DNA from: Candidatus Latescibacterota bacterium
Lineage (GTDB): Bacteria > Latescibacterota > UBA2968 > GCA-2709665
DNA length: 64,000 nucleotides
Assembly (NCBI GenBank): GCA_965219995.1
Contig: CBDCOX010000002.1
Coordinates: 2,880,001 to 2,944,000 of the forward strand
Direction: 5' to 3'
Position 1 is the first letter of the stretch. Each line of letters opens with the position of its first letter. The notes beneath the pieces were generated by a model. It did no database searches, had not been told where the DNA came from, and saw only the letters and a program-made list of their open reading frames with translations. Positions 9,006-53,374 of the stretch are shown here, one piece after another. A program made the translations under genes and the position numbers.

Positions 9006-9270
9006 TTAACCTTGATTCGTCATTTTTCGAAAACGTTTATTCGAATGAACGCAGGTTGATAAAGGCGATTAAACATCTGATTACCAGGAACCTTCAGGTC
9101 ACTGGACGTGAACGGAAAAAATGTCCTTCCGGACGACCTTTTCGGTCTGGCGAGGAAAGAACTGCAGTGTCACCGCGTTATGACACACGCCGCTTTGCAC
9201 GGATGCTTACTGTGCCTTTTGTGCTTTTTGTGGCCAATTTTTCGGTGTTCTTTTTTCACATTGAGGTTAA
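9006..9270 (+). mobile_element. ~260-bp MITE, copy 1
   Basis: TTAA-CCTTGATTCG...CATTGAGG-TTAA; closely similar to 21458-21721. Confidence 0.85.
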
Positions 9271-21457: not shown

Positions 21458-21721
21458 TTAACCTTGATTCGTCATTATTCGGGGACGTTAATTCGAAGTT
21501 GTGCAAGTTGATAAAGGCGATTTAACTGCTGATTTCAATGAACCTTCAGGTCACTGGACGTGAACGGAAAAAATGTCCTTCCGGACGACCTTTTCGGTCC
21601 GGTGAGGAAAGAACTGCAGGGTCACCGCCTTATGACACACGCCGCTTTGCACGGATGCTTTTTGAGTCTTTTGTGCTTTTTGTGGCCATTTTTCGGTGTT
21701 CTTTTTTCACATTGAGGTTAA
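21458..21721 (+). mobile_element. ~260-bp MITE, copy 2
   Basis: Same ends and TTAA flanks as 9006-9270. Confidence 0.85.
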
Positions 21722-32039: not shown

Positions 32040-32129
32040 CTGAATGAGGTATCTTCTCCACCAGAGAGCTGCGTGCAGTGTTCTGTAGACGTATCAAGCC
32101 GCTTACCACCACATCCGACGGAGGAACCA

Positions 32130-35100
32130 ATGTGTCATCAAATCAGGTCGCTGGGTCCGACTGTCGTCCTGTATATCTGTTTGCTTACAGCATCGGACTC
32201 CGCATTCGCCCGGACCGACCTGCAGTTCAAGTTGCTGGGCGTCCATCATTCGGGGGTCTACGATGAAGGCGCTGCCGAGATTTCCGCATACGATCCGGCC
32301 ACCCATCGCCTGTTCGTTGTCAATGCCAACGCGGCAACGATCGACATCGTCGATATCAGCGAGCCATCCGATCCATCCCTTGTAAATTCAATCAGGGTCT
32401 CCGGTTATGGCGCCGCCGTGAACAGCGTCGCGGCCATGAACGGTATCGTGGCGGTTGCGGTGGAAGCCGAACGCGTTCAGGACCCCGGCAAGGTCGTTTT
32501 CTTCGACGCCGACGGCGCCGTTCTCAATAGCGTGCATGTGGGTGTCCTGCCGGACATGCTCACATTCTCTCCGGATGGCACGCGGGTTCTGGTGGCCAAC
32601 GAAGGGCAGCCCGGCCCGGACTATGCGATCGATCCGGAAGGGAGCGTGAGTATCATCGACCTGTCCGGCGGACCGGGAGCGGCCTCGGTCACCCACGTTA
32701 CATTTGCCTCCTTTAATGGACAGGAGGCCCGGCTTCGCAGTCAGGGCGTGCGTATCTTCGGTCCGGGCGCAAGCGCCGCCCAGGACCTGGAACCGGAATA
32801 CATCGCCCTGACTCCCGACGGTTCATCCGCGTTCGTTGCATTGCAGGAGAACAACGCCCTGGCTGTGGTGGACGTCGCCGCGGCGTCCGTATCAGCGATC
32901 ATACCGCTCGGCTTCAAGGACCACGGCACGCCGGACAACGCGCTCGATGCCAGCGATAGAGATGGCGGCATCCTGATTCGAGAGTGGCCGGTGCTCGGCA
33001 TGTACCAGCCGGACGCAATCGCCGCGTTTGAATCCGGAGGTCGGACATTTGTGATTTCGGCGAACGAGGGGGACTCGCGGGACTATGACGGCTTCAGCGA
33101 AGAAGCCCGCGTTGCCGACCTCATGCTGGATCCCACGGCGTTTCCCAACGCCGCAAGCCTGCAGGATGACGCGCACCTGGGCAGGCTGAAGACGACCACG
33201 AGCCTGGGTGACGGCGACGGCGACGGCGACCACGATCGGCTGTTCGCCTACGGCGGCCGGTCTTTTTCCATCTGGGATGCCAGAGGAAATCTCGTATTCG
33301 ACAGTGGTGACGACTTCGAACGCCGTCTGGCGGATCTGATTCCCGAAGACTTCAACGCCAACAACGATGAAAACGGGTCGTTCGACAGCCGCAGCGACGA
33401 CAAGGGCCCCGAACCCGAGGCCGTGGTTACGGGAACCATCGACAACCGCGTCTACGCCTTCATCGGCCTTGAGCGGGTCGGCGGCGTCATGGTTTACGAT
33501 ATCTCCCTGCCTTCCGCGCCCACGTTCGTCACGTACGTCAACAACAGGGATTTCTCGGCCCGTTTCGACCCGGATGACGCCACCCGCGGCGACCTTGTCC
33601 GCACGGGGGACCTGGGCCCCGAAGGTCTCATCTTCATACCCGCCGCGGACGGCCCGACAGGTGAGCACCTGCTGGCCGTCTCCAACGAGGTGAGCGGATC
33701 GGTCTCCATCTTTCAAATTGTGACGCCCGCGACGCCGGCCCGCGAGTTTACACTCACCATTCTGCACAACAACGACGGCGAATCCCAATTGATAAATGCC
33801 GGCGAAGGGCTGGAGGACTTTGGCGGCGTTGACCGATTCAAGGCGCTGGTAGATCGGCTCAAAGCCGAAGCGCGGATGGACGGCGGGGTGATCATGGTCT
33901 CGTCGGGGGATAACTTCCTCGCGGGCCCGGAGTTCAACGTCAGCCTACGGCGCCCCGAATCCGCCCCCTTCTACGACGCCCTGGCGATGGACCTGATCGG
34001 GTACGATGCCGTCTGCATCGGCAACCACGACTTCGACTTCGGACCGGACGTCCTGGCCAGGTTCATTGCCGGGTACAGCCGCACCCGCCCGCCATATCTC
34101 AGTGCCAACCTCGACTTCGGGGACGAACCGGAACTGGCGGATCTCGTCGCTTCCGGCCGGATTTCCGGGAGCGCGGTCGTCAGAGTCGCCGGCCAACATA
34201 TCGGCATCGTGGGCGCCACGACCCCCGACCTGGCGTTCATCTCCAGTCCACGCAACGTGAGGGTGGACGGCCGGCTGCGGGAAGCCATCCAGGCCGAAGT
34301 GAACGGGCTGGCGCTACGCGGCGTGAACATTGTCGTTCTGATCAGCCACCTCCAGTCCATCAACAACGATCTGGAACTCGCCCGGCAATTGCGGGGCGTG
34401 GACGTCGTGATTGCGGGTGGCGGCGACGACATCCTGGCGAATCCCGGCGCCCGTCTCATTCCCGGCGACGAAGCCGGGATATCCGGACCGTACCCGATAC
34501 TCGAACAGGGCGCTGACGGGAACGACGTCCGCGTTGTCACCACCGCGGGGAATTATCGATACGTGGGCCGGTTCGTGGCCGGTTTCAATGCTGCCGGCGT
34601 CATTGCGTCTGTCGACCGGAACGCCAGCGGACCGGTGCGGGTGGCCGGCGGCGATCAGCCGGATGCCGCGGACCCCGACGCGGAAGTCCGGAAACGGGTC
34701 GTCGCCCCGGTCATCGATGCCCTTGCTTCCCTTGCTTCCAATCCGGTGGGCACGTCGAGCGTTGTGCTCGACGGCGCGAGGCGTAGAATTCGGACCCGGG
34801 AGACCAACGAAGGCAACCTGGTGGCCGACGCCCTCCGATGGCAGAGCGCACAGCTTGCCTCGTCTTTCGGCGTTCCCGTTCCACAGGTCGGCATCGTGAA
34901 CGGAGGGGGAATACGCAACGCCGGCGAAATTCCCGCAGGCGTGATATCCGAACTCACGACCTTCGATATGCTGCCATTTCCCAACTTCGTCACCGTCGTG
35001 CCCGCCGTTCCCGCGGCACAGTTCAGGGAAATCATGGAGAACGCGGTCTCGAAGGTGGAAGAAACCTCGGGGCGATTCGCCCAGATTTCGGGCTTCGCAA

Positions 35101-36065
35101 TGGTCTGGAATCCCGATGGCGTCGCCCAGGAACTGGATGAGAGCGGAAACGTCACGCGACGCGGCGGCCGGATCGTCAACATTACCCTCGACACGGGCGC
35201 AGGCATCGTCGAAAACGGAAACGTCGTATCCGGCGCGCCGGACATTCACGTGGCAACCGTTGACTTCCTCGCCAGGGGCGGTGACCAGTACCCCTATCGG
35301 GGCGCCCGCTTCACTCGTCTGGGCGTGACCTACCAGCAGGCGCTTGTCAATTTCATCAGGGAGGCCCTCGACGGCCGCATCACGGCGGCGGCGTATCCGG
35401 CAGGGGGACGTCGCCGGATTACCACCGGGCAACCGGCGCCGGCGGACGGCCCGAACGTCCGGAGTCGTTCTGTCGTACACGTCATCCTCACGGGAGACGT
35501 CGGGCCGGTACCGGACGCCCGGGTCGAGTTTTCCCGTGCCATCTCCGGCCGCGCGAAGGACTACCGGTGGACGGGAACAACCGATGCCGAAGGCCGCGCA
35601 ACGATAGAAATCCGACCTGAAAGCCGCCGAAGCGTCTCGGGGTACTACGCGGTTCGTGCAGTGGATATCACGGGCAATACGATCTCCAAATGGGAGAGCG
35701 TCCCGATCAACAGCGGGCGGGAAATCACACTCGTCCTGCCGGTGGGTGGCGTCGCCCGCGTGGAGGAGGAACAACTGCCGGCTGCGGAACCCCTGGCGCT
35801 TTACGCGAACACCCCCAACCCGTTCAACCCTTCCACCCGGATTGCCTACCGGATCCCCGAGCCCGGGCAGGTCGCCCTCACGGTTTACAACCTGCTGGGC
35901 CAGCAGGTCCGGGTTCTGGTAAGGGATCACCAGAGCCCGGGCCGGTACGAGGTCCAGTGGGACGGAAGGGACGGGGTCGGGCGTTCCGTTTCCAGCGGCG
36001 TTTATTACTACAGATTGGCGCATCCGGGCGGCACCCTCACCAATCGCATGCTCCTGGTCAAATAA
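32130..36065 (+). CDS. Secreted fusion: choice-of-anchor I alkaline phosphatase-like propeller + 5'-nucleotidase + FlgD-Ig/sorting-like C-terminal domain
   Basis: GAAEISAY, ANEGQP, DLEPEYI, RSDDKGPEPE, FIGLERVGG; LHNNDGES, SGDNF, GNHDFD, GRFAQISG; NTPNPFNPSTRIAY...VYNLLGQ; ATG after GGAGG. Confidence 0.85.
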   Translation: MCHQIRSLGPTVVLYICLLTASDSAFARTDLQFKLLGVHHSGVYDEGAAEISAYDPATHRLFVVNANAATIDIVDISEPSDPSLVNSIRVSGYGAAVNSVAAMNGIVAVAVEAERVQDPGKVVFFDADGAVLNSVHVGVLPDMLTFSPDGTRVLVANEGQPGPDYAIDPEGSVSIIDLSGGPGAASVTHVTFASFNGQEARLRSQGVRIFGPGASAAQDLEPEYIALTPDGSSAFVALQENNALAVVDVAAASVSAIIPLGFKDHGTPDNALDASDRDGGILIREWPVLGMYQPDAIAAFESGGRTFVISANEGDSRDYDGFSEEARVADLMLDPTAFPNAASLQDDAHLGRLKTTTSLGDGDGDGDHDRLFAYGGRSFSIWDARGNLVFDSGDDFERRLADLIPEDFNANNDENGSFDSRSDDKGPEPEAVVTGTIDNRVYAFIGLERVGGVMVYDISLPSAPTFVTYVNNRDFSARFDPDDATRGDLVRTGDLGPEGLIFIPAADGPTGEHLLAVSNEVSGSVSIFQIVTPATPAREFTLTILHNNDGESQLINAGEGLEDFGGVDRFKALVDRLKAEARMDGGVIMVSSGDNFLAGPEFNVSLRRPESAPFYDALAMDLIGYDAVCIGNHDFDFGPDVLARFIAGYSRTRPPYLSANLDFGDEPELADLVASGRISGSAVVRVAGQHIGIVGATTPDLAFISSPRNVRVDGRLREAIQAEVNGLALRGVNIVVLISHLQSINNDLELARQLRGVDVVIAGGGDDILANPGARLIPGDEAGISGPYPILEQGADGNDVRVVTTAGNYRYVGRFVAGFNAAGVIASVDRNASGPVRVAGGDQPDAADPDAEVRKRVVAPVIDALASLASNPVGTSSVVLDGARRRIRTRETNEGNLVADALRWQSAQLASSFGVPVPQVGIVNGGGIRNAGEIPAGVISELTTFDMLPFPNFVTVVPAVPAAQFREIMENAVSKVEETSGRFAQISGFAMVWNPDGVAQELDESGNVTRRGGRIVNITLDTGAGIVENGNVVSGAPDIHVATVDFLARGGDQYPYRGARFTRLGVTYQQALVNFIREALDGRITAAAYPAGGRRRITTGQPAPADGPNVRSRSVVHVILTGDVGPVPDARVEFSRAISGRAKDYRWTGTTDAEGRATIEIRPESRRSVSGYYAVRAVDITGNTISKWESVPINSGREITLVLPVGGVARVEEEQLPAAEPLALYANTPNPFNPSTRIAYRIPEPGQVALTVYNLLGQQVRVLVRDHQSPGRYEVQWDGRDGVGRSVSSGVYYYRLAHPGGTLTNRMLLVK

Positions 36066-36097
36066 CGGTCGGCACAGACCTGGCGCACAGTCAAAAA

Positions 36098-36129
36098 AAC
36101 CGGGCGATCGACATACCGATCGCCCGGTT
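36098..36129. terminator. Terminator-like hairpin
   Basis: AACCGGGCGATCG-acatac-CGATCGCCCGGTT, preceded by an A tract. Confidence 0.7.
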
Positions 36130-36333
36130 CAACTTGCAGAGACCGCGCCGAACGTCTCGCTACGGGCATCTCCCGGTGTGTTGTCCGCGAAATCACCTGA
36201 TTCCACGGATGGCTGCCTGGAACCCCCATCGGATTCTTCTTACGCGCCGCAATTTCCTTGGTCGGATGTGAACATCTGGCGGTCCTTGTGCGCAAGATGC
36301 AGGCCCGTCGGCTGCTTTCCGGCTTCCGTTCAC

Positions 36334-36362
36334 TTGACGAAGGCGTCCGTTTCCGGTATATT
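36334..36362 (+). promoter_or_regulatory. Sigma70-type promoter of the leader peptide operon
   Basis: TTGACG-N17-TATATT. Confidence 0.65.
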
Positions 36363-36409
36363 TTCATGCGAATCCCGGTACGTTCTGTACTCTTCCGGAG
36401 ACGGCAGGG

Positions 36410-36688
36410 ATGTTTTTTTCCTACAAACGGATTCATCCGTTTGTTGTTTTCGCTCTGGCGATATTCGCGGCCTATCTCGCGGTATTTCTGCTTGCCGCGT
36501 ACCCCGGTCACGACCACGACCAGCAACAATGTACTGTCTGCGCCTGGTTCAATAGCCTGAGCTTCGCTTTGCCCGCATTACTGGCGGTGCAGCTCTGCTT
36601 CCTGCACTTCCGTCAATTGTTCTCCTCACGCCGCGCACTTCGCATCTCCTTCCTATTTCCCGAGGAACGCGCTCCACCCGTGTCCTGA
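36410..36688 (+). CDS. DUF2946/CruR/CutF-like leader peptide (signal, HDHD, CxxC, C-terminal RAPP)
   Basis: Hydrophobic N-terminus, HDHDQQQCTVC, ends ERAPPVS; lies between the promoter and the lipoprotein-TBDT genes. Confidence 0.75.
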   Translation: MFFSYKRIHPFVVFALAIFAAYLAVFLLAAYPGHDHDQQQCTVCAWFNSLSFALPALLAVQLCFLHFRQLFSSRRALRISFLFPEERAPPVS

Positions 36689-36995
36689 ACCATCCTCCCG
36701 TGTCGTCAAGACGCACCCTTCGACGTTTCAACATTGATTCCAACTTAAGTGACTCCGGCTCGGGGCTTGCCCGAATCCGTACATGCGGGGATGCGGGATT
36801 ATCGTGCGTTCGAGTGGCCTTTAGTCCTTAGGGATCGGCATTGTGCCATCCCGGCTTCTTTCCGGAGGTCATCAGCCGCCCAAGGCATTGGCATGTCGAC
36901 AGATTGTCGACCGATATGAAACACGCCTTCCACTCAGGCGGATGCCCACGCGAGTTTTGCGGCAAAATGAAAAAATGGTATACAGGAGAACATTG

Positions 36996-38246
36996 ATGTT
37001 CAGCGCGCTGAAAATCCAAAGATCCCCTCTGTTAATCGCAGCGGCGGCGGTAGCGGTCATCCTGGCCGGCTGCGGAAAAGAAGACCCCATTACGCCACAG
37101 GAAGAGCATTACGAAGCCGAAGGCCTCGTCCTCCTCGACTCCGGCCAGCGATTCTTCCGGTATTTCCAGGGCAGGATCGACTCGGGCGACGGCCGGGCGG
37201 AAGCCCTGGAAGTCCATCACGGCGAAGTCACCGCCAAGTGGAACATCCGCTTCCTGGACGGGGACGGAAACGAAATGGCGCCCCCCACCGGCGAGGGATT
37301 CACTTTCACCTGGGAGATTGAGGACAGGTCAATTGTCGAAGTCGTCCAGGACGAGGGGGAAGCGGGTAAATTCGTCTTTGCCCTGCGCGGCCTGGAAGAT
37401 GGCGAAACCACCATCAGGCTTCAGATCTCGCACGAAGGCCACGTGGACTTCACCACGCTGCCGCTCCCGGTACACGTGGTCGGAGAGTTCGAGGCGGAAG
37501 GGCTTGTCATCATCGAATCCGGCGTTCGATTCTTCCGCTATTTCCAGGGCGAGATCGACTCTGACGAAGGTCGGGTGTCGGAACTCACGGCGCCGATCGG
37601 CCTGACGCCTCACTGGCGCATCGCGTTTCTGGATGAACACGGCGAAGAAATAGACCCGCCGGACGATCCCGAATTCTCGTTCGCCTGGATCATTGCCGAC
37701 TCCGACATCCTCGCAGTCCACCAGGACGAGGGCGACGAGGGCTCGTTCGACTTCCACCTGCGCGGCTTGCACGAGGGCGAGACCACCATTGTATTTGGAG
37801 TCAGACACGAGGGTCACATCGACTTCCGCACACAACCCATCCCCGTGCACGTGGAGTCGCAGGAGGGTCAGCACGAAGAACCCGTGGGCGTGCGGCTCAA
37901 GGAGGAAGACAGCGGTGAGTTGCTCACGCAGGCGCCCTTAAAGGGAGAGGGCACAGCCACCGAAACTCTGACGGTTGCCGCAGGCGACACCACCGACCAC
38001 ATCGCGACCTTCTTCTTCGACGAGCACGACGTGGAATTCCAGCCGGAAGCGCCGGACGAGACGCTGGGCATTGCGGTGGCGGACACCTCGCTGCTCGGAA
38101 TCGATCCGCCCGTAGCGCCCGAATACTGGGCATTCAGACTCATCGGCAAGAAGGCCGGCACGACGACCATTACGCTTTCCATTCTCCACGACGGTGAGGC
38201 CGAGGACGAATTCGCGCCGATTTCCGTGACGATCACCGCACCGTAG
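36996..38246 (+). CDS. Acidic lipoprotein with three tandem ~125-aa repeats and HEGHxDF motifs
   Basis: AGGAG + ATG 36996; lipobox ILAGC; repeated EAEGLV...RFFRYFQG...LRGL..GETT...HEGHxDF. Confidence 0.8.
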   Translation: MFSALKIQRSPLLIAAAAVAVILAGCGKEDPITPQEEHYEAEGLVLLDSGQRFFRYFQGRIDSGDGRAEALEVHHGEVTAKWNIRFLDGDGNEMAPPTGEGFTFTWEIEDRSIVEVVQDEGEAGKFVFALRGLEDGETTIRLQISHEGHVDFTTLPLPVHVVGEFEAEGLVIIESGVRFFRYFQGEIDSDEGRVSELTAPIGLTPHWRIAFLDEHGEEIDPPDDPEFSFAWIIADSDILAVHQDEGDEGSFDFHLRGLHEGETTIVFGVRHEGHIDFRTQPIPVHVESQEGQHEEPVGVRLKEEDSGELLTQAPLKGEGTATETLTVAAGDTTDHIATFFFDEHDVEFQPEAPDETLGIAVADTSLLGIDPPVAPEYWAFRLIGKKAGTTTITLSILHDGEAEDEFAPISVTITAP

Positions 38247-38269
38247 AATGAAACTCGGCGGGAGGACGA

Positions 38270-40588
38270 GTGCCGTCCTCCCGCCGTCTGCAACGCGGGA
38301 GCACGTCCCAGATGGCTGATGTACACCGCATGATGCGACTGCTTCAGGGCGGCGCCGCCAACCCCTGTTCCGGCAGCCGGTTGTTCGTTGTCGGAGCGGT
38401 GCTGGCGCTGCTGTCCCCGGCCTTTCTTGCGGGCATTGGTTGGACGGATCAGCCTGTGTTGATCGAAGGGTACGTCTTCGACAGCGAGTCCGGACTGCCC
38501 ATCCGGAACGTGAACGTCCAGCCCGCGGGTCCCGCCGCAGGCACGTCTACCGACGAAAAGGGCCGGTTCGTGCTCCATCTCTCAGGGGGTATATACAGGC
38601 TGTCCTTTACCCACGTCGGCTATCAGGATGCGCACTACGACCTGACCGTCTCTGGGGCAAAGCATCCCGTTGTCTATCAGGAACTGGCGCGACTGGACCT
38701 TAAGCTGGATCCCATCGACGTCGTGGCCAGGCGCACCGAAACCCGGTTTGACGAACTCCAGCAGGCCACCCGCGTGCTTTCGGGCGACGAACTCCGGAAG
38801 AAATACAGCATGACGCTGGCCGAAACCATGAAGAACGAACTCGGAGTGGCCATCCGCAGCATGGGTCCGGCGCCCGCCCGTCCGGTCATCCGCGGCCTCA
38901 GCGGCGACCGCGTCCAGATCAACGTCGACGGCATCGAGTCGCAGGACCTCTCATCCACGTCCGCGGACCACGCCGTGACGGTGGAGACGTTCAACGCGGA
39001 ACGGCTGGAAATCATCCGCGGACCCCGAACGCTGCTGCACACGTCTTCGGCCGGCGGCGGCGTTATCAACGTCGTCAAGCACAAGATTCCGGAAATCCGT
39101 CCGGAGCGCTTCTTCGGGAGCGTGGGCGCCTACGGGGAAACGGCGAACCGGGGTTATTTCTCGTCCGCCGCCCTCACCGCGCCCATTGGGCCGCTCGCGC
39201 TATATGCCGAATCCACGTACCGGGATACCCGGGACATCCAGACCCCGGTCGGCAAACTCGCCAATACGCCCATCAACACCCATACCTATACACTCGGACT
39301 GTCCTATGCGCGCGACCGGGGTTATATCGGCGCTTCTTTCGATCAGTTCGAAACGCAATACGGCATTCCAGGCGGATTCATCGGCGCGCATCCCAACGGC
39401 GCGGACCTGGATATCGTACGGCGGGTCTTCGACGGGAAGGCGGTCTACCGGTTCGACGGCGGGACAGCAGACAGGTTCGAGGCGGGCTTCACGAAGGCCT
39501 ATTACTACCACGTCGAGTACGAGTCAAGCGGCAGCATCGGATCCGAGTTCCTCTTTCATGACTACAGTGGAGAACTCAAACTCTACCTGAACACGGGAAA
39601 CCAGGAGCAAAACACCGTTCTCTCTTCCGGTTTTCAACACCGGAACCTGAAACTGGGCGCTTTTGTCTTCACGCCGCCCACGCGAAAGCAGGACCTCAAC
39701 GTCGGGTTGTATCACGAGACGACCTACCGCAATATCGAACTTCAGGCCGCCGCCCGGTACAACTATGCCACCTTCGACCCGCGCCTCCAGACGATCACCA
39801 ACAAGAGCCTGGACATAGACCGCACCTTCCATACATGGTCCGCGGCCTTCAGTCCGCTCGTGCCGGTCACCGACCAGCTGACAGCAGGCGTGAGCCTCAG
39901 CCGTTCCCAGCGCGCCCCCACCATCGAGGAACTCTACAACGAGGGACCGCACCTGGCTGCTTACACCTTTGAGATTGGCAATGTCGAACTCAATGCCGAG
40001 CGCAGTTTCGGCCTGGAGGCCTTCCTCCACTTTCTGCAACCGGGCTTCGATCTGGTCTTCACCGGATTCTGGAACGAGTTCGGCAATTACATCGCGCCTC
40101 GAAACACCGGAGAAATCAACTATGCGCAACTCCTCCCCATCTACGCTGCCGAAGGTATCGACGCGAGAATGACGGGCGTGGAAAGCCACATGAAGTGGCG
40201 TCCGAACGCGCGCCTCGAACTGGAAATGAACCTGAGCCACGTGCGCGGCGAAAACCGGGACGAACGGATGCCCCTTCCCGAAATGCCGCCCCTGAAGTTC
40301 GTGGGCAGCGCGACCTACCGGCACCCAATGCTGACCGGGGGAGGAACCGTGGAATGGGCCGCGGGACAGAAACGCGTGGATACGTACGAAGACCCCACCT
40401 CCGGTTATTCCGTCTTCGGCGTTTACATACAGCGCGACTTCCTCGCGAATCAGGCGCGCCACAGCGTGATCCTCTCCCTTGAGAATCTCTTCGACACGGA
40501 ATACCGGAATCACCTGTCGCGCATCCGCTCGGTGATGCCCGAAACGGGCCGGAGCCTGAAGTTGAACTACAGGATGTATTTCTTCTAG
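38270..40588 (+). CDS. TonB-dependent receptor, ZnuD-like, with N-terminal carboxypeptidase-regulatory-like domain
   Basis: ARPVIRGLSGDRV, ADHAV, EIIRGP, RAPTIEELYNEGPH, ENLFDTEYRNHLSR, terminal Phe; start uncertain. Confidence 0.85.
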   Translation: MPSSRRLQRGSTSQMADVHRMMRLLQGGAANPCSGSRLFVVGAVLALLSPAFLAGIGWTDQPVLIEGYVFDSESGLPIRNVNVQPAGPAAGTSTDEKGRFVLHLSGGIYRLSFTHVGYQDAHYDLTVSGAKHPVVYQELARLDLKLDPIDVVARRTETRFDELQQATRVLSGDELRKKYSMTLAETMKNELGVAIRSMGPAPARPVIRGLSGDRVQINVDGIESQDLSSTSADHAVTVETFNAERLEIIRGPRTLLHTSSAGGGVINVVKHKIPEIRPERFFGSVGAYGETANRGYFSSAALTAPIGPLALYAESTYRDTRDIQTPVGKLANTPINTHTYTLGLSYARDRGYIGASFDQFETQYGIPGGFIGAHPNGADLDIVRRVFDGKAVYRFDGGTADRFEAGFTKAYYYHVEYESSGSIGSEFLFHDYSGELKLYLNTGNQEQNTVLSSGFQHRNLKLGAFVFTPPTRKQDLNVGLYHETTYRNIELQAAARYNYATFDPRLQTITNKSLDIDRTFHTWSAAFSPLVPVTDQLTAGVSLSRSQRAPTIEELYNEGPHLAAYTFEIGNVELNAERSFGLEAFLHFLQPGFDLVFTGFWNEFGNYIAPRNTGEINYAQLLPIYAAEGIDARMTGVESHMKWRPNARLELEMNLSHVRGENRDERMPLPEMPPLKFVGSATYRHPMLTGGGTVEWAAGQKRVDTYEDPTSGYSVFGVYIQRDFLANQARHSVILSLENLFDTEYRNHLSRIRSVMPETGRSLKLNYRMYFF

Positions 40589-40664
40589 TTTCGAGCAGGC
40601 AACTGCAGCGATTGCGCACGCCACTCCCTCCGATCATGGCAGAGTGATATTCCCCTGAAACGCA

Positions 40665-40705
40665 GAGCCCCGGACCCAAACGCCGATCCGGGGCTTGCAC
40701 TTTTT
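40665..40705 (+). terminator. Intrinsic terminator after the TBDT gene
   Basis: AGCCCCGGA...TCCGGGGCT followed by TGCACTTTTT. Confidence 0.55.
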
Positions 40706-40797
40706 GATGCCACGCTTTATCTTTTGGAGACCGGAAATCGTGACAATTACGATTCAGTATGCACTCACCATTCCATCGAAAACACTCGAGGTACTCT

Positions 40798-41040
40798 ATG
40801 GCTGAATCAATGATTGATAAGGATGGCCACCTCAGGTTGCCCAAGGAAGTCCGGGAGCACCTGCATTTGAATCCAGGAGATCGACTCAATCTTGTCATTC
40901 AGGACAATGGAGACGTGGTCATAAAACCAAATATGCGAGACGTTCGAGATCTGAAGGGAATTCTGACTCCGGCTTCGCAGTCAGTCACCATTGAGGATAT
41001 GAATCGGGCTATTCGGCAACGAGGCAGCCATACACAATGA
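40798..41040 (+). CDS. AbrB/MazE-family antitoxin
   Basis: KDGHLRLPKEVREHLHLNPGDRL; ATGA overlap with the PIN gene. Confidence 0.85.
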   Translation: MAESMIDKDGHLRLPKEVREHLHLNPGDRLNLVIQDNGDVVIKPNMRDVRDLKGILTPASQSVTIEDMNRAIRQRGSHTQ

Positions 41041-41423
41041 TTGGGCTGGATACAAACGTACTGGTTCGTTATCTAACACAAGATGACCCGGAACAGTCGA
41101 GAATTGCAACACGAGAAATCGAAACGAGTGACGAGTCTTTTTTCATCACAACGACTGGATTGTGCGAGCTCGTTTGGGTCTTGGAAACGGCCTATGGATT
41201 TAACCGATCGGCAATTTCGCACACACTGAGCGTAATACTTCAAACACGTCAATTCGTATTTGACGACAAATTACCTCTGGAAAACGCGCTGGACGAATAC
41301 CAACATGAAAAGGGTGATTTTTCGGATTACGTACTTGGCCACAAGAGCAAACTGGCTGGATGCGACAAGACACTCACGTTTGACCGTGCCTTGAAAAATC
41401 ACGCGCTTTTTGAATTATTGTGA
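41037..41423 (+). CDS. vapC: VapC-family PIN toxin
   Basis: MIGLDTNVLVRYL, ELVWVL, DFSD, TLTFD. Confidence 0.85.
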   Translation: MIGLDTNVLVRYLTQDDPEQSRIATREIETSDESFFITTTGLCELVWVLETAYGFNRSAISHTLSVILQTRQFVFDDKLPLENALDEYQHEKGDFSDYVLGHKSKLAGCDKTLTFDRALKNHALFELL

Positions 41424-46263: not shown

Positions 46264-46463
46264 TTAACCTTAATTCGACAAGAGCAGCATCGCTGCTCCC
46301 GCGACAAGACCTTCCGAATTGGGCCGAAAAGGTCGTCGAAATGGACACTTTTTCCGTTCAGGTCCGGTGACCTGAAGTTTCATAGAAATCAGCAGTTAAA
46401 TCGCCTTTATTCAGTTGCACATATTCGAATTAACGTCCCCGAATAATTACGAATCAAGGTTAA
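46264..46463 (-). mobile_element. MITE copy 3 (shorter, ~200 bp)
   Basis: Reverse-complement homolog of 9006-9270; TTAA at both ends. Confidence 0.75.
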
Positions 46464-46763: not shown

Positions 46764-46832
46764 ACCGGTCTTCCATGTTCGCAATCGCCCGGATCCATTG
46801 GAGTACCGGCCCCGGGGTTTCACGCATCGGTC
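46704..46832 (+). repeat. Left copy of the diverged yidD-3'/lgt-5' direct repeat
   Basis: Aligns with 54487-54614 with one 1-nt gap. Confidence 0.9.
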
Positions 46833-46879
46833 GTTCAGGTCTTTTCACGGAAAATGTCCATCCTCCCACGCCTACCTCT

Positions 46880-47248
46880 ATGCAACGAGACACCCGTCAA
46901 CGCCGGGCGATCCGCGTCGTATTCATAAACGCCGGGCGCCCTCTCACGTCTGAAGAGGTCCTCGAGTACGGCCAACAGATCGTTCCGTCACTCGGTGTGG
47001 CAACCGTATACCGGAACGTGAAGATTCTCGTTGGCGAGGGGTGGCTATCGGAAGTGCAATTCAGGGGCGGCGGGCTTCGATACGAGTTGGCCGACCGTCC
47101 GCATCACCACCACTTCCTCTGCCGCTCCTGTGATCAGGCGTTCGACATCCATCGTTGCCCTGACGAAGTCGAAGCTCTGGCGCCCGACGGCTTCGAAGTC
47201 GACGGCCACGAGCTGGTTCTTTTCGGTCGCTGCGCGGCGTGTGCGTGA
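46880..47248 (+). CDS. Fur-family regulator (likely Zur); in-frame upstream ATG at 46775
   Basis: TRQRRAI, LGVATVYRN, HHHHFLCRSC, C-terminal CAAC. Confidence 0.85.
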   Translation: MQRDTRQRRAIRVVFINAGRPLTSEEVLEYGQQIVPSLGVATVYRNVKILVGEGWLSEVQFRGGGLRYELADRPHHHHFLCRSCDQAFDIHRCPDEVEALAPDGFEVDGHELVLFGRCAACA

Positions 47249-47288
47249 CTGGCGTCCAGCACACACTACGCACCTCTCCGACACCCTC

Positions 47289-47320
47289 TTGACTTGATAG
47301 CGATAAATCATTATCATTAC
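47289..47320 (+). promoter_or_regulatory. Promoter with Fur/Zur-box-like site
   Basis: TTGACT followed by GATAGCGATAAATCATTATCATTAC, an AT-rich patch in GC-rich DNA upstream of COG0523. Confidence 0.6.
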
Positions 47321-47428
47321 TGTCGTGCCGCTTACGCCGTTGACGCCGCAGACCTGGTCCAGGTCTGCACGGCGTGGGGGTTCGACGTCCAGATTCCAAT
47401 GCTCGCACCTCTGCTCCAGGAGAACTAG

Positions 47429-48850
47429 ATGAACACGCCGCGAAAAGTACCTGTTTCCATCCTCACCGGCTTCCTCGGCTCTGGCAAGACGACGCTGCTC
47501 AACCGGATCTTGAGTGAGGAGCACGGCAAGCGCATTGCGGTGATCGAGAACGAGTACGGCGAGGTCGGCATCGATCAGGCGCTCGTCATCGACGCTGACG
47601 AAGAGATCTTCGAGATGTCGAACGGATGCATCTGCTGCACGGTGCGCGGAGACCTGATTCGCGTACTCGGCAATCTCATGAAGCGCCGCGACAAGTTCGA
47701 CTATGTGCTGGTGGAGACCACAGGGCTCGCCGATCCCGGCCCGGTCGCTCAGACCTTCTTCATGGACGATGAGATTCGTGCGGAGTTCTCGCTTGACGGG
47801 ATCGTCACGCTCGTCGATGCAGCCCACATCGAGCAGCAGCTCGGACGAAGCGACGAAAGCAAGGAGCAAATCGCATTTGCAGACGTCCTCGTGCTCAACA
47901 AGACGGACCTCGTCGATGGCGAGGCGCTCGACAGGCTCGAAGCTCGGCTTCGGGACATGAACCGAATGGCGCAGGTCGTACGCAGCGAGCGGGCGAACGT
48001 CTCCGTCGATACTGTACTCAATCTCGACGCCTTCGACCTGGACCAGGCGCTCGAGCGTCGCCCCACTTTTCTCGAGCCCGAGTATCCCTTCGAATGGACT
48101 GGAGTCTACTCGCTCGGTATCGGCCGCTACGAACTCAGCCTCGCCGATGGACCTGATCCGGCGATGTCGCTCGTCGTCGTGTCCGACCAGGGCACGGATG
48201 ACGCTGCCCTCCGTGAGGGTGCTGAGTGGTGTGTGCGGCGGTACGCCGAACCTGCGGCACTCATTCGCCCAGGGGAAGAACTCGCGGTCGGAAAGCATGT
48301 GAACCTCCGGCTGGATTCCCCGGGGCGCAAGTCCTTCTTCCTGGATGTCAATTCGAAGGTGCGGGTTGGCCTTTACGCCCAGCACCTCGCGGAGGAGTTC
48401 GATCTCCAACTCACGAACGCGGGTCGAGCGCCTATAGAGATAGAGGAGCGTCCGGGCTCCGAGCCTGCCTCCACAGCGGCCGGCACCCTGTCCAACAAGG
48501 GAGCAGCCGTTCCCGTCGAGGTCGAGCGAACCTGGGTCGCACAGCACGAACACGACGACGAGGTGAGTTCGATCGCGATTGAGCGGGACGGCGACGTCGA
48601 TCCAGGCAGGATCGACGCCTGGCTTGGCAAACTGCTCAGTGAGCGCGGGGTGGACATCTTCCGAATGAAGGGCTTCATCAGCCTCGCGGGCGAGTCGCGT
48701 CGCTTCGTCTTCCAGGGGGTTCACATGCTCTTTGACGGCCAGCCGGATCGTGAATGGGGCGACGCGCCACGCCGCAATCAGCTCGTCTTCATCGGCCGCA
48801 ACCTCGATGAGCAGAGCATGCGGCAGGCGTTCGAAGCATGTCTGATTTGA
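47429..48850 (+). CDS. COG0523/CobW-family zinc metallochaperone GTPase with internal insertion
   Basis: GFLGSGKTT, NEYGE, GCICC, ETTGLADP, NKTD; HEHDD then CobW_C (FRMKG, FQGVH, LVFIGRNLD). Confidence 0.9.
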   Translation: MNTPRKVPVSILTGFLGSGKTTLLNRILSEEHGKRIAVIENEYGEVGIDQALVIDADEEIFEMSNGCICCTVRGDLIRVLGNLMKRRDKFDYVLVETTGLADPGPVAQTFFMDDEIRAEFSLDGIVTLVDAAHIEQQLGRSDESKEQIAFADVLVLNKTDLVDGEALDRLEARLRDMNRMAQVVRSERANVSVDTVLNLDAFDLDQALERRPTFLEPEYPFEWTGVYSLGIGRYELSLADGPDPAMSLVVVSDQGTDDAALREGAEWCVRRYAEPAALIRPGEELAVGKHVNLRLDSPGRKSFFLDVNSKVRVGLYAQHLAEEFDLQLTNAGRAPIEIEERPGSEPASTAAGTLSNKGAAVPVEVERTWVAQHEHDDEVSSIAIERDGDVDPGRIDAWLGKLLSERGVDIFRMKGFISLAGESRRFVFQGVHMLFDGQPDREWGDAPRRNQLVFIGRNLDEQSMRQAFEACLI

Positions 48851-49878
48851 ATGTCGACAGACCCAGGGGCGTTCTTCGCCGGGGCTGGTCCGCGGAGGTC
48901 GGCGACTATGCCATCGCCGGGGGTTGGAGCCTGCGCGGTAAAGCGCTGATGGTCGGTGATGCCGCGGGCGGCGTCTACGCATTCGACGGCAGGTCCGGCG
49001 CGGCCGCCTGGAAGAGGCGCGGGGTTCATGAAGGTGGTGTGCTCGCTGTGGCGATCCACCCGAGCGGAAACTCGTTCGCGACGGCCGGTCAGGACAGCCG
49101 AGTCTTACTCTGGAGAGCCGCCGAAGGTCAGGTAAGCCGGGCCATCGACGTCGGAAGCGGTTGGGTAGAAAACGTGGCGTGGTCGCCGGACGGCCAATGG
49201 CTGGCGGCCTCCTGCTCCCGCCAGGTTCGTGCGTATGGAGCGGACGGCGCGGAGGTCTGGCGATCTGATGACCATCCCAGCACCGTCAGCGCGATCGCCT
49301 GGTCAAGCGCCGGGGAGCTGGCGACGGCCTGTTACGGTCGGGTGACGTTCTTCGACGCGCCCACCGGCGAGCTTCGGCAGAAGCTGGAGTGGCAGGGATC
49401 CCTGGTGTCGTTGGTACTGAGCCCGGACGGAGACGTCGTGGCCTGCGGCAGCCAGGACAACTCGGTGCACTTCTGGCATCGCTCCACGGAGCAGGACTCC
49501 ATGATGTCAGGATATCCTGCCAAGCCGTCGGCCCTGGCTTTCGATGACACCGGCACCCTCCTGGCCACCGGCGGCGGAGAGGCAGTGACGGTCTGGAGCT
49601 TCCAGGGAAGGGGTCCCGAAGGCACGCGGCCCGGCGTTCTGGAGCTTCATGTTCAACCCGTCACGACGCTTGCCTTCGCTCGCCGCGGGATGCGCCTGGC
49701 ATCGGGAGGCCGCGACGGCGCCGTGGTTGTGTGGTCGCTTCAGAGAAATGGAGAAGGCGGTTCGATAGGGGCCGCGGCTGTGGGGGGCGTAGTGGCTGAA
49801 TTGTACTGGCGGCCAGACGGCCGCGCGCTTGCCGCGCTCGACGCGCGGGGTGGCGTGACGGTTTGGCGAATAGGGTGA
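48838..49878 (+). CDS. WD40-repeat protein
   Basis: AWSPDG, ATAGQD, ACGSQDNSVHFW, ASGGRDG; overlaps the COG0523 stop. Confidence 0.85.
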   Translation: MSDLNVDRPRGVLRRGWSAEVGDYAIAGGWSLRGKALMVGDAAGGVYAFDGRSGAAAWKRRGVHEGGVLAVAIHPSGNSFATAGQDSRVLLWRAAEGQVSRAIDVGSGWVENVAWSPDGQWLAASCSRQVRAYGADGAEVWRSDDHPSTVSAIAWSSAGELATACYGRVTFFDAPTGELRQKLEWQGSLVSLVLSPDGDVVACGSQDNSVHFWHRSTEQDSMMSGYPAKPSALAFDDTGTLLATGGGEAVTVWSFQGRGPEGTRPGVLELHVQPVTTLAFARRGMRLASGGRDGAVVVWSLQRNGEGGSIGAAAVGGVVAELYWRPDGRALAALDARGGVTVWRIG

Positions 49879-50953: not shown

Positions 50954-52234
50954 GTGTTTGAGTCGAAAATGAACAAACGGATCGGGTTGTATTTCATCGT
51001 TCAACGCAGTCTTCGACAACACGCGCTCTCGACCCTCATCACAACATGTTCAATCGCGCTCGGTACGGGGCTTGTAATGGCGGTTATCGCCATCAGAGCG
51101 CAATCCGTCTCGGCATTCACGGGCGGTCCGACTGGCTTTGATGCGGTATTGGGAGCACGCGGCAGTCCGTTGCAATTGGTGCTGAACACCGTATTTCATC
51201 TCGAAACCTCGCCGGGGAATATCCCCTGGACGATGTATCAGGCGATGAAAGACGATCCGCGTGTCGAGCTCGCCATTCCTTACGCGCTTGGAGACAATTA
51301 TTACGGTTTCCGTATCGTCGGAACGGAAATTGAGTTGTTCACGGAGTTTGAATACCGCAAAGGGGTGCGGTTTCGGACGCATGGGGATGGACGTTTTTTC
51401 GATCCCGACCGGCAGGAGGCCGTCCTTGGCAGCTATGCCGCACAGAAGTTGAACCTGAAGGCGGGGGATACGTTTCAGCCGTATCACGGCCTGGTGTTCG
51501 ATGAATCCATGCGGCATGATGAACAATATGTTGTTGTTGGTGTGCTCGAAGCGACCAATTCACCCTCCGATCGTGTCATCTGGATTCCAATCGAGGGAGT
51601 TTATCGGCTGGAGGGGCATGTGTTGCGGGGCGGCGGTGATGAATATGTTGCCAAACCCGGTCGAGAGATCCCCGACGCACATAAAGAGGTTAGCGCAGTC
51701 ATGCTGAAGTTTCGGAATCCGCAGATCGGTTTCATGATGGATGCAATGATCAACAAACAGGGGAAGGTGGCAACGTTGGCATGGCCCATCGGCGCTGTGA
51801 TGGCCGGCCTGTTTGACAAAATCGGTTGGATGAATCAAATCCTGGCACTCGTTTCCTATCTGGTTGTCCTCGTTGCGGCGGGTTCAATTCTCGCAAGCAT
51901 CTACAACTCAATCAATGAACGGCGGCGCGAATTCGCCATTCTGCGATCACTTGGCGCACGTCGCAAAACGGTGTTTGCGGTAATTGTGCTGGAAGCTGCA
52001 TCGATCGCGGCGTTAGGGGTCATCGCAGGATTTCTGGTCTATGCTGCGATTTTCACCTCAGCATCAGAAATTGTCCGCGCTCAGACTGGTATCGTCCTGG
52101 ACCTGTTGAAATTTCATCTCGCGTTTGTAGTCGTGCCCGTTTGCGTCATACTTCTGGGTGTGATGGCTGGCATTGTGCCCGCATTCAAGGCGTATCGGAC
52201 GGATGTTGCCACGAATCTAACACCCATAAGCTAA
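50954..52234 (+). CDS. ABC permease (ZrgC-like)
   Basis: GARGSPLQLVLNTVFH, AIPYALGD, ERRREFAILRSLGA; GTG after AAGGAG. Confidence 0.85.
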   Translation: MFESKMNKRIGLYFIVQRSLRQHALSTLITTCSIALGTGLVMAVIAIRAQSVSAFTGGPTGFDAVLGARGSPLQLVLNTVFHLETSPGNIPWTMYQAMKDDPRVELAIPYALGDNYYGFRIVGTEIELFTEFEYRKGVRFRTHGDGRFFDPDRQEAVLGSYAAQKLNLKAGDTFQPYHGLVFDESMRHDEQYVVVGVLEATNSPSDRVIWIPIEGVYRLEGHVLRGGGDEYVAKPGREIPDAHKEVSAVMLKFRNPQIGFMMDAMINKQGKVATLAWPIGAVMAGLFDKIGWMNQILALVSYLVVLVAAGSILASIYNSINERRREFAILRSLGARRKTVFAVIVLEAASIAALGVIAGFLVYAAIFTSASEIVRAQTGIVLDLLKFHLAFVVVPVCVILLGVMAGIVPAFKAYRTDVATNLTPIS

Positions 52235-52379
52235 TGTCCTGTCGCGAAAACACTTCACCGGTCGGCCGACGATTCATCCCGTCTGCCGACGCTGCTTGCA
52301 CTGCCTGCACTGAGCTTGCCGAAGTGGCTTGTCGAACGGAAAAGCCCCATCAACTGCCACCAGGCGGGCAGAAGGTTCT

Positions 52380-52481
52380 CCAGGAAGGTCAATCTCACGG
52401 ATTCGTGATGGTTCCACCATGAGCCTTTTGCTGTTTGTCTTTGGTTCTGGCTGACTGCTGAGAGCTGATTGCTGATCGCTG
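52380..52481 (-). repeat. ~100-bp repeat with TCAGC heptamer array
   Basis: Reverse complement aligns with 60810-60909. Confidence 0.7.
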
Positions 52482-52584
52482 CATTTCTCCGGCCGGATTC
52501 GGGCAACTTTTTCCGGGCCAGAACACTGCAAGACGTACGATACAACAAAATCGTCAAGCCAATGGTGTAGAAGGGGACATTGTC

Positions 52585-53118
52585 ATGAGAGTCCAAAGAA
52601 AGCTCTTGATACGAGCGGCAATTCTAACGGTTATTATTGCTCACATCGGTTGCGAGAAAATGGAGGAGCATCGCCACGAACACGGGGAACCACACGAAAC
52701 CAATGCACATCATGAGCATATTGCACCTCACGGCGGGACATTGGTTGTATTTGGCGATGAGTTTGCGCACATTGAGTTTGTGCTGGACCGGACAACGGGA
52801 AAACTCACTGGCTACGTGCTTGACGGTGAAGCGGAAAAATCGGTGAGGCTCTCACAGAAGACAATCGAACTCAAGGTACATCGAGAAGATGCCGAGACCG
52901 ACTTTACTTTGCAACTTTCAGCGATTGCAAACGTCCTGACCGGAGAGACCCAAGGCGACACCTCCCAATTTGAGGCCCAATCGGACGCACTTAAGGGAGC
53001 ATCGGAATTTCATGCAGAGATTGTCTCGATTGAAGTAATGGGTCAGATGTTCACTCATATTGAATTTGAGTTTCCCGAAGGCAACGAGGCAACGGAAAAT
53101 AAGCATGGTGGACATTAG
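52585..53118 (+). CDS. His-rich putative lipoprotein (metal-binding)
   Basis: IGC lipobox-like site, HRHEHGEPHETNAHHEH, APHGG, HIEF motifs. Confidence 0.8.
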   Translation: MRVQRKLLIRAAILTVIIAHIGCEKMEEHRHEHGEPHETNAHHEHIAPHGGTLVVFGDEFAHIEFVLDRTTGKLTGYVLDGEAEKSVRLSQKTIELKVHREDAETDFTLQLSAIANVLTGETQGDTSQFEAQSDALKGASEFHAEIVSIEVMGQMFTHIEFEFPEGNEATENKHGGH

Positions 53119-53372
53119 TCTCAATTTGAAAAAAGAAAAATTGGCCACAAAAAGCACAAAAGACACAAAAAGAATCCGTGCAAAGCGTCGTGTGTGGTAA
53201 CGCGGTGACCCTGCAGTTATTTCCTCACCGAGCCGAAAAGGTCGTCGGGAAGCACGTTTTTTCCGTTCACGTCCAGTGACCAGAAGGATCATAGAAATCA
53301 GCAGTTAAATCGCCTTTATTCACTTGCACATACTCGAATTAACGTACCCGAATAATGACGAATCAAGGTTAG
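53115..53372 (-). mobile_element. MITE copy 4
   Basis: Reverse homolog of copy 1; TTAG duplicated at both ends. Confidence 0.85.
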
Positions 53373-53374
53373 TC

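Follow-up and report, generated by a model that had tools for sequence, protein, structure and literature searches.

The region analysed here lies on contig CBDCOX010000002.1 of a Candidatus Latescibacterota bacterium (assembly GCA_965219995.1), inside a stretch of 64,000 nucleotides (nt) that we call the window. It holds a 92-codon open reading frame (ORF), hereafter the leader, followed after a long spacer by genes for a lipoprotein and a ZnuD-like TonB-dependent receptor. A previous sequence-only reading of this DNA had listed a promoter, a 92-amino-acid (aa) ORF with a signal-like segment, HDHD, CTVC and RAPP motifs, a spacer of about 300 nt, the lipoprotein, the receptor and a terminator, and had taken the leader for a candidate metal-sensing ribosome-arrest peptide. 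Each of these features is indeed present, at the following positions of the window.

36334..36362, plus strand: sigma-70-like promoter, -35 TTGACG, 17-nt spacer, -10 TATATT (consensus scan, 10/12 positions)
36397..36400, plus strand: Shine-Dalgarno (SD) sequence GGAG of the leader ORF, 9 nt ahead of the ATG, inside a well-conserved GGAGAC block
36410..36688, plus strand: leader ORF, 92 codons, candidate metal-sensing ribosome-arrest peptide (ORF list, homologs)
36440..36496, plus strand: hydrophobic N-terminal anchor of the leader, codons 11-29 (Kyte-Doolittle 19-mer, 2.79)
36509..36541, plus strand: putative His2Cys2 metal site, codons 34-44, H-D-H-D-Q-Q-Q-C-T-V-C (alignments of homologs)
36640..36750, plus strand: C-rich, G-poor tract resembling a Rho-utilisation (rut) site, leader 3' end and first ~60 nt of the spacer (composition)
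36668..36679, plus strand: candidate arrest motif R-A-P-P, codons 87-90 (R, P, P invariant in relatives)
36683..36693, plus strand: last codon of the leader, stop and next bases (UCCUGAACCAU), predicted to pair with the lipoprotein ribosome-binding site (RBS) region 36975-36988
36689..36995, plus strand: spacer between leader and lipoprotein gene, 307 nt
36700..36714, plus strand: small conserved hairpin directly past the leader stop (RNAalifold columns 41-58)
36984..36988, plus strand: SD sequence AGGAG of the lipoprotein gene (CAGGAGA kept in most relatives)
36996..38246, plus strand: lipoprotein gene, 416 aa, lipobox LAGC ending at Cys26 (ORF list, alignment)
38256..38286, plus strand: very stable intercistronic hairpin between lipoprotein and receptor genes, 13 bp, no U-tail (-29.4 kcal/mol, z -5.4)
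38270..40588, plus strand: ZnuD-like TonB-dependent receptor, ORF of 772 aa (domain matches)
40662..40705, plus strand: terminator-like hairpin (40662-40698), then the U-run UUGCACUUUUU (fold -22 kcal/mol, z -3.7)

The promoter hexamers (CTTGAC and TATATT) and their spacing are unchanged in 16/16 aligned relatives, in which the DNA upstream of the -35 shows no conservation. None of 200 shuffles folds as well as the terminator-like hairpin at 40662 (0/200). The hairpin at 38256-38286 could set the lipoprotein:receptor ratio or stabilise the upstream mRNA.

Read from its N-terminus, the leader peptide consists of K6/R7, a hydrophobic stretch (11-29), H34-D-H-D, three glutamines and C41-T-V-C44, after which come a second, moderately hydrophobic segment (47-67), an arginine-rich stretch, R87-A-P-P90 and a final V-S before the stop. 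This combination goes beyond chance and occurs once in the genome: a scan of all six frames of the 5.4-Mb sequence (stop-to-stop frames of at least 50 aa) for CxxC, 38-50 aa, R[ASG]PP, no more than 6 aa and a stop returned one of 59,769 frames, which is the leader ORF. Relatives were found by three kinds of search, namely 19 homologs of 57-80% identity by a word-indexed search, the named ones coming from Gemmatimonadota metagenome-assembled genomes, 29 protein clusters by a profile search, and three relatives when phmmer was run exhaustively against 1.84 billion representatives. A match is present in 46/168 Gemmatimonadota genomes (own genus complete), distributed by family, with the window's own genome excluded, over 18/21, 21/31 and 6/76 genomes, and many carriers have two or three copies. 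The earlier proposal of a system outside the Proteobacteria is borne out.

From the loci fetched for these relatives we took 46 distinct leader peptides and aligned 31 diverse ones. Only C41, C44, R87, P89 and P90 are invariant columns in this alignment; H36 and W46 are conserved in more than 90% of the diverse peptides, and H34, H36, C41 and C44 are all invariant among the 19 close homologs. Identity between subfamilies falls to 19-30%, and at the second position of the motif Ala alternates with Ser (R[AS]PP). The distance from CxxC to R[AS]PP is nonetheless 42 or 43 aa in 46/46 peptides (42 in the window leader), a rigidity which argues that the geometry of the leader matters. The tail after the two prolines is 2-3 aa long in 45/46 peptides (two residues, V-S, in the window leader), and hydropathy calculation places a hydrophobic segment ahead of CxxC in 45/46 and both segments in 42/46. 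At the invariant residues the codons vary synonymously (four codons for Arg, four for each Pro, both for Cys), and the start column switches between ATG and GTG. The homologs, the five invariant residues, the synonymous variation and the alternating starts together indicate that the leader ORF is a real coding sequence, translated and under protein-level selection.

Tandem duplication of the leader is frequent (loci L034, L035, L036, L038, L040, L042, L043, L044 and L046), in the form either of adjacent leaders or of repeated leader-lipoprotein(-receptor) modules, and the lipoprotein of L036 has six domains in 792 aa. Some copies look degraded: the L033 receptor is split in three frames, the L039 lipoprotein is frameshifted, and the G053 leader copy behind L051 contains an in-frame TAG. 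Sequencing runs labelled sponge metagenome carry 79-82% of the sampled words of 36300-40600, and none of the runs listed for this stretch is recorded as RNA.

The first gene behind the leader encodes a lipoprotein of three tandem Ig-like domains, all beta in an AlphaFold model (mean predicted local distance difference test score, pLDDT, 82). It matches neither a Pfam family nor a PDB sequence, and a fold search returned generic Ig-like, S-layer and invasin matches only. E37, H38, H146, H149, D151 and F152 are invariant across 22 one- or three-domain orthologs, and some one-domain forms end in His/Asp/Glu-rich tails. We propose that the lipoprotein is a metal-capture partner of the receptor, its invariant E-H ... 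H-x-x-H-x-D-F signature marking it as a possible new partner that captures zinc for ZnuD-like receptors. The receptor itself, which probably begins at the ATG of position 38313, is composed of an extra N-terminal CarboxypepD_reg domain, Plug and TonB_dep_Rec_b-barrel; ZnuD, to our knowledge, is without a CarboxypepD_reg domain. Plug and barrel fit the ZnuD-type design of a plug and a 22-strand barrel. The E-value is 5.5e-59 with the NCBIfam ZnuD model and 1.9e-15 with the copper-receptor model, and the only PDB sequence matched at E<=1e-10 is ZnuD 4RDR (E 6e-37), aligned over residues 164-368 only.

A small exported peptide with these motifs at the head of a receptor operon recalls CruR (Bp2923) of Bordetella pertussis, the prototype of DUF2946/PF11162 (Roy 2022, PMC9426467). 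According to that report, the traits of the family are a CXXC, an RAPP three residues from the end and an export signal in >95% of members; the members stand first in operons, often with TonB-dependent receptors and long intergenic regions, and when copper relieves the arrest of CruR, transcription is ended by Rho within the spacer. Arrest of CruR has been obtained in vitro with the two proline codons in the P and A sites (Fujiwara 2025, PMC12992588). The same paper describes RSPP as arrest-permissive and strongly avoided in proteomes, calls RAPP/RGPP upstream ORFs ahead of TonB-dependent receptors universal in Gram-negative bacteria, and in its survey has such receptors among the downstream genes in Gram-negative phyla.

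Our leader shares with CruR the first position in a TonB-receptor operon, an N-terminal export segment or anchor, an invariant CxxC, a C-terminal RAPP (2-3 residues ahead of the stop), a rigid distance between the two motifs and a long intergenic spacer, so that the CruR- and CutF-like architecture suggested for it earlier is supported; its cargo is likewise for uptake, and the same logic, in which metal relieves arrest, is to be expected. Unlike CruR, it falls below the Pfam cut-off, has a spacing of 42-43 instead of 45 residues, counts 92 aa instead of 145, and carries conserved histidines, a second hydrophobic segment and the Ala/Ser alternation. It belongs to the Gemmatimonadota, a lipoprotein gene stands between leader and receptor, the receptor is ZnuD-like as opposed to BfrG/OprC-like, and the neighbourhood is of zinc type as opposed to copper type. 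Sub-threshold DUF2946 matches at E<=1 occur in 13/31 leader relatives (best 1.1e-4), and in the ESM Atlas the nearest cluster having any Pfam family carries DUF2946 (54% of members, score 0.90). The phylum contains other leaders of this general form: in one group CPAC, 46 residues and NRGPPRC are followed by a single-domain homolog of the lipoprotein and by a receptor, while a further leader with CATC, 44 residues and IRAPPIR heads a porin-like protein and a ZnuA-like gene, the latter read from a partial translation. We place the leader as one that would work like DUF2946 proteins and is probably a distant relative of theirs, rather than as an established member.

CutF of Rhodobacter capsulatus is a second point of comparison. 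There, a copper-induced stall melts a stem that hides the next RBS (Ozturk 2023, PMC9973294; bioRxiv 10.1101/2025.02.05.636593), and CutF-like proteins, whose metal motifs are built of Cys, of His or of both and whose neighbours include TonB-type genes, need not all be copper-specific according to the same authors (Ozturk 2023 and 2025). The leader resembles CutF as a small exported peptide with a putative cysteine metal site and a predicted C-terminal proline stall, and masking of the SD sequence is predicted for it too, strongly so in relatives with short spacers. It differs in that CutF has CxxxC and a proline-rich motif, and in CutF copper induces the stall, which turns on a detoxifying oxidase, with involvement of elongation factor P (EF-P); the cargo of the leader is for uptake, and the opposite polarity is expected.

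We give somewhat better than even credence to the reading that the leader regulates its operon in cis, in the manner of CruR and CutF, with zinc as its likeliest metal, the functional steps of which we infer as follows. The N-terminal anchor would bring the nascent chain to the membrane, and the ribosome would stall on Arg87-Ala88-Pro89, where Pro89 would occupy the P site and Pro90 the A site, a position taken from the CruR toeprint in PMC12992588. The stalled ribosome would cover the leader's final codons together with its stop and the beginning of the C-rich tract; the covered bases could then not mask the lipoprotein RBS, and/or Rho would be kept off, and lipoprotein and ZnuD-like receptor would be made. 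When metal is plentiful, it would bind the nascent His34/His36/Cys41/Cys44 site, whose distance to the arrest motif is constant at 42-43 residues; with the metal-bound chain the stall would be released, the ribosome would terminate, and masking of the RBS and/or termination by Rho in the 307-nt spacer would switch uptake off. This polarity follows from the cargo: since it serves uptake, metal is expected to relieve the stall, as for CruR. With the P and A sites occupied by Pro89 and Pro90, 46 residues separate Cys44 from the peptidyl-transferase centre, which would put this cysteine at or just past the tunnel exit, depending on the helicity of segment 47-67 within the tunnel.

The RNA that would read out such a stall appears to come in two designs. 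Spacers measure 254-854 nt in the long-spacer loci of the window's own family and 120-147 nt in a sister family of lower G+C content and one other genus. At the short-spacer loci, the stretch that runs from the codons behind the two prolines through the stop into the bases beyond it (GUAGUCUCCUGAAU) is complementary to the AUUCAGGAGAC of the lipoprotein gene. This duplex between tail and SD sequence reaches -14 to -24 kcal/mol, at p<=0.01 against shuffles, in 14/38 loci, all 14 of which have short spacers, and RNAalifold finds in these loci a helix of 14 bp whose every pair is kept in 11-13 of 13 sequences; the Ser/Phe variation of the tail (UCC/UUC) reads within this helix as a change from G-C to G-U. 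In the window, UCCUGAACCAU pairs with AUGGU...CAGGA (-13.0 kcal/mol, z -2.1; 27/1000 shuffles match), a pairing that is weaker than in the short-spacer relatives and appears in both the minimum-free-energy and the centroid folds of 36659-37010. By the logic of CutF and SecM, a ribosome stalled with proline in the P site would cover most of the anti-SD segment of the short-spacer loci.

For the long spacers, the composition suggests that Rho may act too. The C/G ratio (78-nt windows) is 1.8-2.4 across 36640-36750, within the top 0.5-3% of the 64 kb on both strands, and C exceeds G in 25/27 related loci with spacers >250 nt, being about equal to G in the other two. No intrinsic terminator was found in the 307-nt spacer. 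The hairpin past the stop (36700-36714) has one pair with three compensatory changes and is weak when taken alone (-6.6 kcal/mol, z -1.3). The read-out in the window may be SD masking, Rho, or both.

The leader might instead be a stable two-helix protein of the inner membrane that aids the importer, for example as a metal relay facing the periplasm, and whose RAPP would be kept for that task and have no regulatory role. Two hydrophobic segments with positive-inside charges, both of them present in 42/46 peptides, would suit such a protein, in whose finished form the metal motif would face the periplasm, and the leader is always co-directional with transport genes. However, freedom of sequence outside five residues and a spacing, down to 19-30% identity between subfamilies, is atypical of a folded partner, and RAPP-like motifs are among the most avoided bacterial tetrapeptides, save near the C-terminus of small arrest peptides (PMC12992588). 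The tail codons and stop that pair with the next SD sequence in 14 loci, and the unrelated cargo behind the same type of leader (receptor, ABC importer, FolE2), also speak against a membrane partner, which we consider unlikely.

For the arrest-leader reading, the question of which metal would be sensed was addressed through the genes behind the leader in 20 related regions, fetched with long flanks. A receptor follows the leader in 13/20, with or without the lipoprotein gene between them and sometimes with tandem leader-lipoprotein modules, so that the leader is conserved ahead of homologous operons, a check that the sequence-only reading had proposed. The lipoprotein stands alone in 1/20, and 1/20 is a degraded copy. 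In 4/20 the leader is followed by a porin-like outer-membrane protein, ZnuA and an ABC-3 permease, a layout confirmed with Pfam for ZnuA and ABC-3 in L045, L046 and L047 and, for L050, confirmed for ABC-3 only, the rest being assigned by similarity. In the last (1/20, L048) it is followed by FolE2, whose protein exceeds the NCBIfam cut-off, a WD40 protein and a cation-diffusion (CDF) transporter. No copper, nickel or iron-siderophore genes were seen behind any leader in the 20 regions, and a scan of the same regions found no multicopper oxidase, PCuAC, CopC, YcnI, CusF or PepSY_TM behind the leader.

FolE2, COG0523 and ZnuABC are classic zinc-starvation genes. Downstream in the window, 46775-49878 encodes a Fur-family protein (157 aa, 46775-47248), followed by a GTPase of COG0523/CobW type (473 aa) and a 346-aa WD40 protein homologous to the one that adjoins FolE2 behind the L048 leader homolog; this looks like a zinc-starvation cluster, with the reservation that all specific NCBIfam cut-offs are missed. 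Naming the Fur-family proteins Zur, or the COG0523 protein ZigA, was tried and is not supported by NCBIfam. The ZnuA/ZnuB and FolE2 cargo of the relatives and the Fur-family/COG0523 pair of the window make zinc likelier than copper, and a conserved His pair beside the Cys pair gives a putative His2Cys2 ligand set, which is typical of zinc. Given that the element is a metal sensor, we put zinc as its ligand at roughly two in three. Zinc or nickel had been suggested before: the zinc part gains from the comparative genomics and the COG0523 gene nearby, and for nickel nothing points that way. Nickel was rejected as ligand, no HupE/UreJ, urease or hydrogenase gene lying behind leaders in the 20 regions. 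That the cargo departs from the described copper operons, also claimed earlier, is upheld by the ZnuD-like receptor and by the relatives that head ZnuA/ZnuB and FolE2 genes.

The protein of 354-410 aa interposed between leader and ZnuA (L045:6829-7893 on the minus strand, L046:1318-2550, L047:1314-2486, and a 402-aa ORF in L061) has no Pfam family, ends in FTIGSHPAH.Y in L045 and L061, and is probably a metal-dedicated outer-membrane porin. Just downstream of the leader operons in L041-L044 and L046, genes for chlorite-dismutase-like, cation-diffusion-facilitator, AAA_21 ATPase and PurH-like (AICARFT/IMPCHase) proteins recur.

A copper version of the same arrest mechanism, in which copper is sensed as in CruR and the receptor imports copper, could appeal to the CxxC, the signature Cu(I) site of DUF2946 proteins, to the TonB-dependent receptor that CruR controls in the same gene position, and to the majority of CutF-like proteins, which adjoin copper genes. 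With no copper gene behind the leader in 20 regions, a receptor that fits ZnuD far better than the copper-receptor model, relatives that head ZnuA/ABC-3 and FolE2 genes and a His pair conserved beside the Cys pair, we regard copper as quite unlikely.

Metal could also be absent from the mechanism altogether. Like ApdA, ApdP and ApcA, the leader is a small protein, membrane-bound or secreted, that is encoded upstream of the regulated gene and has the core arrest motif close to its C-terminus; those three monitor Sec/YidC and are without a metal site. RAPP/RGPP arrest peptides are reportedly also treated by Morici in 2024. An intrinsic arrest released by Sec/YidC membrane insertion, as in the secretion monitors ApdA, ApdP and SecM, with the metal control of the operon located elsewhere, would accord with the first-found RAPP leaders, which are monitors of protein localisation, and with an anchor and second hydrophobic segment that could generate pulling force. 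But the downstream genes are not sec or yidC, and the invariant Cys pair, the conserved His and their fixed distance to RAPP would be left unexplained; we hold this to be very unlikely. A nascent-chain stall that responds to zinc is, for its part, physically feasible, because the His2Cys2 zinc finger ADR1a placed ahead of SecM abolishes arrest when zinc is present, half-maximally at ~1 uM (Nilsson 2015, PMC4571824).

Finally, the leader operons carry the same classes of cargo (ZnuD, ZnuABC, FolE2, COG0523) as Zur regulons, in which a DNA-binding repressor is at work; here there is no operator-like promoter element, and a translated leader stands instead. A ~55-nt element, TTGCAC..TTCGAATTAACGT.CCCGAATAAT[GT]ACGAATCAAGGTTA, does occur in four copies in the window (cores at 9016-9031, 21468-21483, 46438-46453 and 53347-53362; the 16-nt core is expected 0.28 times by chance), one of them ahead of yidD-like, Fur-family and COG0523 genes and one ahead of a DUF3299/YceI gene, and may be the operator and promoter of a Fur-family regulator. 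It is absent from the leader promoter, in agreement, as far as this can be tested, with the earlier remark that no Fur/Zur box was evident there. Control of the operon's metal response by a Fur-family repressor, to which the leader would add nothing metal-specific, is hardly probable: of the two Fur-family genes in the genome, the first is located in the window, 6 kb downstream, and the second adjoins znuA, but the element of the Fur-family/COG0523 genes is missing from the leader promoter and no palindrome lies between or around its conserved -35/-10 hexamers.

Several results weigh against the interpretation of the leader as a zinc-linked CruR/CutF-type element, and concern its kinship, its read-out and its metal. 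The membership in DUF2946 for which a profile search had been proposed was not borne out, the leader scoring 16.5 bits against a cut-off of 23.7 (E 0.015, residues 32-90 on profile positions 55-117); none of the 168 genomes of the phylum has a DUF2946 match above cut-off (0/168, best 23.0 bits), and no PF11162-annotated protein is among the 48 matches of the leader profile search. By hhalign, the leader family reaches 52% probability (E 1.4e-4) with the near-threshold RGPP leaders of the phylum and 13% with another RAPP leader of the phylum. Given these weak hhalign values and the missing PF11162 bridge, common descent with CruR is not established, and the spacing of 42 lies outside the CXXC-RAPP spacing of the CruR family (45 +/- 1-2).

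As to the read-out, the helix of the short-spacer loci contains no double compensatory change in the 13-sequence RNAalifold analysis, the duplex of tail and SD sequence in own-genus relatives (spacer ~300 nt) is no better than in shuffles (p 0.16-0.84), the fold of the whole 307-nt spacer is not unusually stable (z -0.47), and the C-rich tract counts as a compositional hint of a rut site. The ADR1a-SecM construct differs from the leader in being an artificial, folded domain of 29 residues, located 24-26 residues from the peptidyl-transferase centre as compared with 46 for the leader. As to the metal, the assignment to zinc is inferred entirely from gene neighbourhood: the Fur-family and COG0523 proteins are under every specific NCBIfam cut-off, the best of 27 NCBIfam models for the receptor is ZnuD NF038289 at 200.5 bits, which misses the cut-off of 950 by far, and NCBIfam does not separate Zn from Mn for ZnuA-family proteins, the ZnuA Pfam family also including manganese and iron binders.

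Other genes of the window flank the operon. Directly upstream, 32073-36065 encodes a 1330-aa protein with choice-of-anchor I, 5'-nucleotidase C-terminal and FlgD-Ig-like C-terminal domains, and a bidirectional-looking hairpin (36097-36130) lies between this gene and the leader promoter. Just past the operon terminator, at 40759-41423, an antitoxin gene of MazE/AbrB type and a gene for a 128-aa protein with no Pfam match share an overlap of 4 nt, and the two look like a toxin-antitoxin pair. Further downstream, three genes lie together at 50954-54490, one for a permease of FtsX/MacB type, one for a lipoprotein of 177 aa whose N-terminal region is rich in His (EEHRHEHGEPHETNAHHEH), and one for a DUF3299/YceI protein. 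These genes may form a second metal-uptake system, and we take them to resemble zrg-type zinc systems.

Zinc uptake in bacteria is taught as a matter of transcriptional control by Zur. In the literature available to us, no paper was found that connects zinc uptake with arrest peptides or RAPP, with CruR, with leader peptides or with ZnuD, with the proviso that the supplements of the CruR and CutF papers, which were searched in part, may list members. Zinc has 0 occurrences in the main text of the RAPP survey (PMC12992588), and the searched phylum names are absent from the supplement text of PMC9426467, which may lack its taxon table. The sequence-only reading had thought the system undescribed; with CruR (PMC9426467), CutF (PMC9973294) and the survey of RAPP upstream ORFs (PMC12992588) in print, the leader type is known. 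From the comparative evidence, we regard the leader as a zinc-linked Gemmatimonadota variant of the CruR/CutF type of arrest leader. The general class being already published, the value of the locus is not a new principle and lies in a comparative case for zinc and in two read-out designs.

A broader and more tentative reading, to which we give rather less than even credence, is that Gemmatimonadota sense zinc by a nascent His2Cys2 peptide that releases an RAPP/RSPP arrest, instead of or beside Zur, with SD masking as the read-out at short spacers and Rho at long ones. The leader would then be a portable translational zinc switch, which may have moved ahead of lipoprotein-receptor, porin-ZnuA-ZnuB and FolE2 genes. 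If this is true, the switch would be a natural counterpart of the ADR1a-SecM experiment and a compact, portable zinc sensor open to cell-free testing. An arrest peptide that responds to zinc would also stretch the principle of CruR and CutF from copper to a second metal, and would mean that a design of five residues at constant spacing can be re-tuned through the addition of His to CxxC and a shift in spacing of 2-3 residues.

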